Positions 20,452 through 20,928 of a DNA stretch of 28,211 bases are shown here, piece after piece. This DNA is from Anaerolineae bacterium. GTDB taxonomy: Bacteria > Chloroflexota > Anaerolineae > Aggregatilineales > Phototrophicaceae. Each line of letters begins with the position of its first letter. Within the stretch, counting starts at the first letter, position 1. The stretch is from positions 1 to 28,211 of the forward strand of contig DAOUJB010000407.1 in assembly GCA_034423155.1 (NCBI GenBank), read 5' to 3'. The position numbers and the translations under genes were made by a program. The notes under the pieces are model-generated. The model saw only the letters and a list, made by a program, of their open reading frames with translations. It was not told the DNA's origin and did no database searches.

Positions 20452-20928
20452 ATGAAATACCAGGATCAGCTTGATTTTGCTGCGCTACGCCAGTATGCTA
20501 AGGCATTGAATGACCGCGCAAAGCTGGCTGGCGCAGCAGGCAAAGTATCCGCGACCATGCTGCGCGATCGAATCCTGGAGTCTGGCGGACGCTGCGAATG
20601 GTGCGGCCGCAACCTGGTGGGCGAAGAGATCGAGCTGGATCATGTGATCAGCCTGGCGCAGGGCGGCGGCAATTCGCCAACCAATCTGGTGGTATCCTGC
20701 CCAGATTGCAATCGGCGCAAGGCTCAGAAGCATCCGGCGCGCTTTGCTGTGGAGATATTTAGCGAGACCGGCGTTCGCACCGACCTGATAACTCGCTTGC
20801 TGGCGCACTACCAGGTCGAAGCGTCCCTACAGTTGCCCTTGTTTTCCAAGACCAGCGATACGGGCAAGGGAGAGTCGGAACGCGATGCTGTCGCCGCAGA
20901 TCCGCCGCAATACCGCTGGAAGGACTAG
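20452..20928 (+). CDS. HNH endonuclease (Zn-binding bba-Me fold) with C-terminal QLPLF motif
   Basis: CEWC...ELDHVISLAQGGGNSPTNLVVSCPDCNRRK: both CxxC pairs and the H/N/N residues are intact. Start ATG 20452 is uncertain (alternative 20413). Confidence 0.85.
   Translation: MKYQDQLDFAALRQYAKALNDRAKLAGAAGKVSATMLRDRILESGGRCEWCGRNLVGEEIELDHVISLAQGGGNSPTNLVVSCPDCNRRKAQKHPARFAVEIFSETGVRTDLITRLLAHYQVEASLQLPLFSKTSDTGKGESERDAVAADPPQYRWKD

Follow-up and report, generated by a model that had tools for sequence, protein, structure and literature searches.

Bacterial proteins described as carriers of a sliding-clamp-binding motif are MutS, MutL, Pol III alpha, Pol IV/V, Hda, ImuB and RecB. Their motifs are pentamers or hexamers with fixed positions 1, 4 and 5/6, which are located on a tail or a loop and are accompanied by an acidic flank (PMC11139829, PMC10421592, bioRxiv 10.1101/2025.08.20.671105). 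None of these carriers is an HNH protein and HNH is not mentioned in the main text of the review PMC11139829; compared with the listed carriers, the family of HNH proteins described here is looser at motif position 2. The known clamp partners are few, E. coli, B. subtilis and mycobacteria account for most of them, and a recent preprint calls the list of bacterial partners incomplete. In the main texts of the searchable literature, which comprises a minority of the subscription papers, no bacterial HNH protein with a clamp motif was found. A paper on phage HNH (PMC12817073) concerns RecA and the transcription of dnaN.

Clamp-bound nucleases as such are already known, namely NucS, MutL and RecB as well as ZRANB3, which acts with PCNA. 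The nuclease fold of NucS differs from HNH. Like the protein described here, EndoMS/NucS of the Actinobacteria is a small endonuclease that stands alone and carries a clamp-binding motif at its C-terminus, and it acts together with the sliding clamp (PMC6159521). However, EndoMS/NucS replaces MutS/MutL, whereas both MutS and MutL are present in all 41 genomes of the HNH-carrying family which were compared, and for this reason a function of the HNH protein as a substitute for mismatch repair is ruled out. The second relative in function is ZRANB3 of animals, an HNH endonuclease which is recruited to forks and stimulated by PCNA via short motifs (PMC5481773). ZRANB3 is large, eukaryotic and ATP-dependent and carries PIP and APIM motifs, while the bacterial protein consists of 158 amino acids without a motor, and the helicase encoded next to it does not co-occur with the HNH gene. 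The HNH domain of ZRANB3 matched our model weakly (Z 4.5). With PacI, the Gme HNH nickase, the catalytic domain of McrA and phage HNH/endonuclease VII proteins the family has the core CxxC...DH...N...CxxCN and the fold in common; the helical extension, the clamp-type motif and the PPxYxW end set it apart from them. McrA carries a large modification-reading domain and the family described here does not.

The HNH gene is located in a stretch of 28,211 nucleotides from a member of the Phototrophicaceae, which was analyzed as a whole and is called the window in the following. All features are compiled in Table 1. An in-frame ATG further upstream, at position 20413, is probably not the start codon.

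Table 1. Features of the HNH gene, its product and its neighbors in the window.
Feature	Position	Strand	Basis
158-aa stand-alone zinc-finger HNH gene	20452..20928	+	ORF, Pfam; orthologues share the start Met (118/121)
First zinc knuckle C48-x2-C51	20593..20604	+	Invariant, 121/121
Beta-beta-alpha-metal active site D63, H64, N78, second knuckle C83-x2-C86, N87	20638..20712	+	Invariant, 121/121
Family-specific helical extension, helices 95-106 and 111-119	20731..20811	+	Marks the family among HNH proteins
Predicted beta-clamp-binding motif QLPLF, residues 127-131	20830..20844	+	Conservation; motif definition from PMC11139829
Variable disordered linker; acidic in the majority of orthologues, missing from several genera	20845..20901	+	pLDDT, pN/pS
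Second conserved terminal motif PPxYxW	20902..20919	+	[YH]xW end in 68/78 GTDB orthologues; pN/pS 0.16
Suv3-like DEXQ helicase gene directly downstream of HNH	20962..23106	+	Pfam; in 66/78 loci
ftsY, divergent neighbor marking a conserved chromosomal site	19411..20361	-	Pfam; in 61/78 loci

The Pfam profile HNH (PF01844) covers residues 48-91 with an E-value of 5e-12 and 46.1 bits versus a cut-off of 21.4. The amino acid sequence alignment comprised the query together with the 120 best of 162 homologues, and D63, H64, N78, N87 and the four Cys residues are invariant within all 121 sequences. The active site is intact with respect to these residues and the protein is a putative nuclease; the roles of D63, H64, N78 and N87 are presumed to be those known for the HNH family. 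In the AlphaFold2 model the protein is folded up to approximately residue 120 and continues as coil, with a mean pLDDT of 78 for residues 121-130 and values below 50 for residues 134-148. The model of a relative of 132 amino acids, based on a more diverse alignment of 77 rows, has a body with pLDDT above 90 and reaches 66 at residues 121-130, which are without secondary structure. In both monomer models the motif is a coil outside the fold in a region of falling pLDDT.

The top structure match was PacI (Z 7.4, rmsd 3.7, 101 aligned residues), and further matches were obtained with Cas9 HNH domains, the McrA catalytic domain and the Geobacter HNH nickase (4h9d, E 4.5e-4). All structure matches are middling including the best one, and no solved structure of this HNH family was among them. 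By sequence, the protein is nearest to groups of phage HNH and endonuclease VII proteins, including those of PHROGs. A phage search yielded partial matches only, and no full-length relative was among 11 partial matches on viral contigs. Of two locus searches for the most distant relatives, one gave no match and the other generic HNH matches (40 loci). A modification-reading domain of the McrA type is absent, just 47 residues preceding the first knuckle, and the match to EcoKMcrA is limited to residues 186-273 of that protein.

An earlier note on this DNA, made from the sequence, had pointed out QLPLF behind the folded region, in agreement with the translation and with the coil in the AlphaFold2 model. 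It had described the remainder as a low-complexity tail; this part turned out to be a variable, mostly acidic linker with a second conserved motif at its end, PPxYxW, which the note had missed. Y154 and W156 of this end are kept in 115 and 117 of the 121 sequences, respectively, and the length from F131 to W156 varies between 15 and 34 residues across orthologues. No other ORF of the genome was found to end convincingly in PPxYxW.

QLPLF is a strict fit to the clamp motif Q-aliphatic-x-[LM]-[FL]. Patterns of this kind are, on the other hand, as frequent as expected by chance: among 2994 ORFs obtained by a crude calling on the genome, Q[LM]x[LM]F was present in 25 versus 25.6 in shuffled sequences, and within the last 40 residues in three ORFs versus 3.4. 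The match alone is at chance level, and the case for a real motif is consequently made entirely by its conservation. In the alignment of 121 sequences Q127 is kept in 120, L/M130 in 118 and F131 in 118, and the flanking columns are variable. A second set comprised 78 orthologous loci from GTDB, in which one genus dominates and from which two generic mycobacterial HNH matches of originally 80 were left out. The conservation of QLxLF in orthologues, which had been proposed as a check, was clearly confirmed, since the Gln and two downstream hydrophobic residues are present in all 78. With Met counted as aliphatic, 52 of them have a strict pentamer, while 21 carry another residue at position 2, four are relaxed and one is a hexamer. 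Several genera, with seven of the 78 orthologues, encode proteins which stop a few residues past the motif.

Comparison of 149 close, non-independent pairs gave a pN/pS of 0.07 for Q127, L130 and F131, of 0.38 for positions 128-129, of 0.23 for the core, of 0.71 for the linker (132-151) and of 0.16 for PPxYxW. Alignment, GTDB orthologues and pN/pS alike place the conservation of positions 1, 4 and 5 above that of their flanks. At Q127, L130 and F131 every available codon is used, i.e., two for Gln, six for Leu and two for Phe. This spread of synonymous codons indicates that selection acts on the protein and rules out a DNA- or RNA-level element beneath the motif.

Out of 150 listed representatives of 50% clusters, the 34 with the helical extension of the family were picked by hand; those not taken were five fragments and 111 HNH proteins of the generic type. 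Nineteen of them contain a pentamer, three a relaxed pentamer, five a hexamer and four the Gln only. Three have nothing of the motif, of which two appear frameshifted and one ends early. Both known motif types are thus found at one site, the six-residue type taking the place of the pentamer in distant relatives. The distant relatives P0159 and P0161 carry Met or Leu instead of the catalytic His and have kept a hexameric clamp-type motif, a pattern which hints, at the level of sequence, at a clamp-binding role without cutting. Apart from the family, five generic HNH proteins out of 111, among them P0162 and P0197, have a clamp-type motif behind the core, versus 1.2 in shuffles with a maximum of four.

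These properties were compared with those of known clamp ligands. Positions 1, 4 and 5 are described as decisive for clamp binding (PMC11139829; bioRxiv 10.64898/2026.05.27.728225), and according to PMC11139829 position 2 is tolerant, motifs of five and six residues are interchangeable and acidic residues follow the motif. The ten residues behind the motif contain 2.5 D/E versus 0.8 K/R in the orthologues. For Pro at position 3 there is a precedent in the functional mycobacterial ImuB motif QLPLWG (PMC10421592). The peptide pocket of the host clamp is conserved: the genome encodes a single dnaN, and its product is identical to the E. coli clamp at 12 of 18 pocket positions (pocket list of PMC11139829); differences include H175, which is Tyr, V247, which is Ile, and also R246 and R365. 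In all 29 aligned clamps of the Anaerolineae (e.g., L001:760-1884) the position of E. coli His175 is occupied by Phe or Tyr, which may shape the motif preference in this class. A complex prediction with DnaN (alignment of 29 rows) and HNH residues 108-158 resulted in a median of 0.31 versus a mark of 0.32 with the controls unfolded, and counts neither way.

As a control within the family, MutS was examined, for which a C-terminal clamp site is known from B. subtilis (PMC6159521; bioRxiv 10.64898/2026.05.27.728225). A motif Q-x-x-[LMF]-[FL] is situated near the C-terminus of MutS in 38 of 41 genomes. Two genomes without the canonical pattern are G114 and G425 (L170, L181), the variant in G114 having an extra residue. 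Position 2 is aliphatic, as judged by eye, in 35 of 38 MutS motifs versus four of 19 HNH motifs across genera; in the 78 loci, among which one genus dominates, it is aliphatic in 52. Relatives with Arg or Pro at position 2 exist. The low share across genera could mean that the binding is weak or that the motif has a different function.

In total, the sequence evidence makes it likely that the QLPLF-type motif docks on the beta clamp. The earlier note had the nuclease recruited to the replisome or to newly replicated DNA; what has held of this is the clamp-like behavior of the motif, with positions 1, 4 and 5 fixed, a location in coil, C-terminal in many relatives, and interchanging types, and the recruitment itself is retained as a part of the proposal given below. 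The alternative that survives best is that the motif is no clamp ligand and packs on the body of the protein or on a dimer partner, or binds another protein. The distance between T110 and Q127 amounts to 17 residues in 76 of 78 orthologues, a rigidity beyond what a free tether would require. Moreover, the Gln is invariant in 77 of 77 diverse sequences, a hydrophobic residue directly precedes it in 24 of 35 diverse rows, position 2 is mostly non-aliphatic across genera and residues 121-130 reach the above-mentioned pLDDT in the model of the window's protein. PacI, the top fold match, is a homodimer. In contrast, both monomer models leave the motif as a low-confidence coil, an exchange of pentamer and hexamer would be unexpected for a packed segment, and acidic residues follow as in clamp ligands. 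A constant spacing would, however, agree as well with a nuclease that is held in a defined geometry on the clamp. Fixed spacing and loose position 2 keep this alternative alive, which we nonetheless regard as doubtful.

The gene was detected at E 1e-17 or better in all 47 genomes of its own genus and in 78 of 129 genomes of the Phototrophicaceae, two of these matches being weak and partial. Presence is mostly all-or-none by genus. In other families of the order Aggregatilineales (Chloroflexota) one weak partial match was obtained in 121 genomes, and samples of 400 genomes of the class and of the phylum contained, outside the family, generic partial matches only. Since an even sample of the family has the gene in just 19 of 40 genomes, it is dispensable. 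In a MutS tree of 41 genomes most clades contain carriers and one clade of 11 genomes lacks HNH; this distribution is compatible with an old gene that was lost repeatedly, and transfer may also have contributed. The gene is single-copy. A divergent second HNH copy directly behind the resident gene was observed (L029:5400-6200; G601:C5:625107-626118); it looks AT-richer by eye and has Gln-x-x-Leu-Leu near the motif site.

Most of the 78 loci have ftsY, an FHA-winged-helix regulator gene and a Suv3-like gene as neighbors. An obligate pair of HNH and helicase was ruled out, as the Suv3-like gene is present in 13 of 20 genomes with HNH and in 14 of 21 without it (hand tally). The Suv3-like helicase is encoded in 27 of 41 family genomes and occurs in forms of about 700 and about 950 residues with a Cys-rich end. 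The FHA-winged-helix gene is part of 53 of 80 loci, where it mostly abuts the HNH start, and overlaps the HNH start codon at L026:4309-5004 and in most loci of the own genus. It is absent from the window and missing in its subclade, and no orthologue was found in this genome, which is 82% complete. In 26 divergent loci, where 51 of 98 neighboring ORFs were scanned with Pfam and 18 with NCBIfam, the neighbors are mostly unrelated housekeeping genes. RecN, an SbcC-like protein (below cut-off) and DnaX were direct same-strand neighbors once each, i.e., in three of the 26 loci (raw count). A LexA box of the Gram-positive type, from which that of the host may differ, was not found near the gene (four in the window, all of them elsewhere, versus 8.3 expected). 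No palindromic operator is shared upstream of the gene in 27 loci, so there is no sign of SOS control.

No DNA methyltransferase was encoded by the 51 of 98 neighboring ORFs scanned, and no defence island was seen among the scanned neighbors. The lack of a methyltransferase or defence partner among the examined neighbors together with the retention in 47 of 47 own-genus genomes speaks against simple restriction, as the earlier note had expected. Type II restriction-modification was rejected because the scanned neighbors include no cognate methyltransferase, and Septu (PtuB) or another PADLOC system because the matches cover the core only (best E 8e-7) and no PtuA-type neighbor is present in the window. 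A further reading is a surveillance nuclease licensed by the clamp, which would dock on clamps recruited by incoming plasmids or phages and cut foreign replicating DNA. The resemblance of the HNH core to McrA, PtuB and other defence nucleases and the patchy presence between genera are in line with this, and the FHA-winged-helix gene could allow an inducible control. However, the defence matches are weak and restricted to the core, the scanned neighborhoods contain no defence island, no means to tell self from foreign DNA is visible, and the gene resides at one chromosomal site in all own-genus genomes. Most defence genes are not kept so uniformly at one site. We consider surveillance rather improbable; what favors repair over it is only the inheritance pattern and weak hints from the neighborhood.

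A homing-type endonuclease which used the clamp to reach DNA under replication, as transposases reportedly do (PMC11417375, PMC4549789), and is still moving or merely tolerated would account for the kinship with phage HNH and endonuclease VII, for the differing neighbors in most genera, for the second copy in L029 and for uncorrelated HNH and MutS distances (rho -0.04, 19 genomes, in a test that is probably saturated), but is improbable. Within its own genus the gene is single-copy, keeps its synteny and is under purifying selection, and the viral-contig matches include no full-length relative. Moreover, separate MutS clades have the HNH gene adjacent to the Suv3-like gene, as would be expected of an old locus.

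For the reading preferred here, a clamp-docked, domesticated accessory nuclease in replication-linked repair, the following course of events is proposed. A phage-related zinc-finger HNH endonuclease would have become a settled chromosomal gene in part of the Phototrophicaceae, and its QxxLF motif, carried on the tail behind the folded body, would dock in the peptide pocket of DnaN. Clamps are present at replication forks, remain on lagging-strand DNA after the fork has passed and are also loaded where repair involves gaps. Docking would thereby concentrate and orient the HNH protein on newly made or stalled DNA, so that the clamp may supply the placement for a putative nuclease without an obvious targeting domain. 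Most likely it would nick an intermediate that contains a branch or a gap, in an accessory role in repair beside the intact MutS/MutL system. The acidic linker and PPxYxW may form an optional second module for a second partner or for self-inhibition. Substrate and pathway we infer from the inheritance and from the analogy with EndoMS/NucS and ZRANB3; nuclease activity and the role of the terminal motif are predictions as well. Taken as a whole, this mechanism is tentative and we rate it at slightly below an even chance. A more far-reaching version appears unlikely: a first bacterial family of clamp-docked HNH proteins, in which a phage-type enzyme has gained the motif and works as a minimal analogue of ZRANB3, switched on only at a DNA-loaded clamp, with the acidic PPxYxW tail as off-switch. 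In this version, clamp motifs on phage-type HNH proteins may even indicate a wider, unnoticed aiming of nucleases at replicating DNA.

If the proposal is true, a lineage-specific HNH nuclease would represent a new enzyme class among the clamp partners and provide a small, testable model for the conversion of a mobile-type nuclease into a genome-maintenance factor. The reach is limited to one bacterial family and about half of its sampled genomes. Natural variants are on hand, comprising pentameric and hexameric motifs, proteins with and without the terminal tail and the two His-less relatives which keep the motif.

Two further observations concern other genes of the window. The gene for release factor 2 (17529-18758) can be read through in a single frame, and the programmed frameshift that usually occurs close to the start of this gene is not apparent. 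rpoC (6483-11105) is not preceded by rpoB; upstream of it are a short ORF without Pfam match and, on the other strand, moeA.
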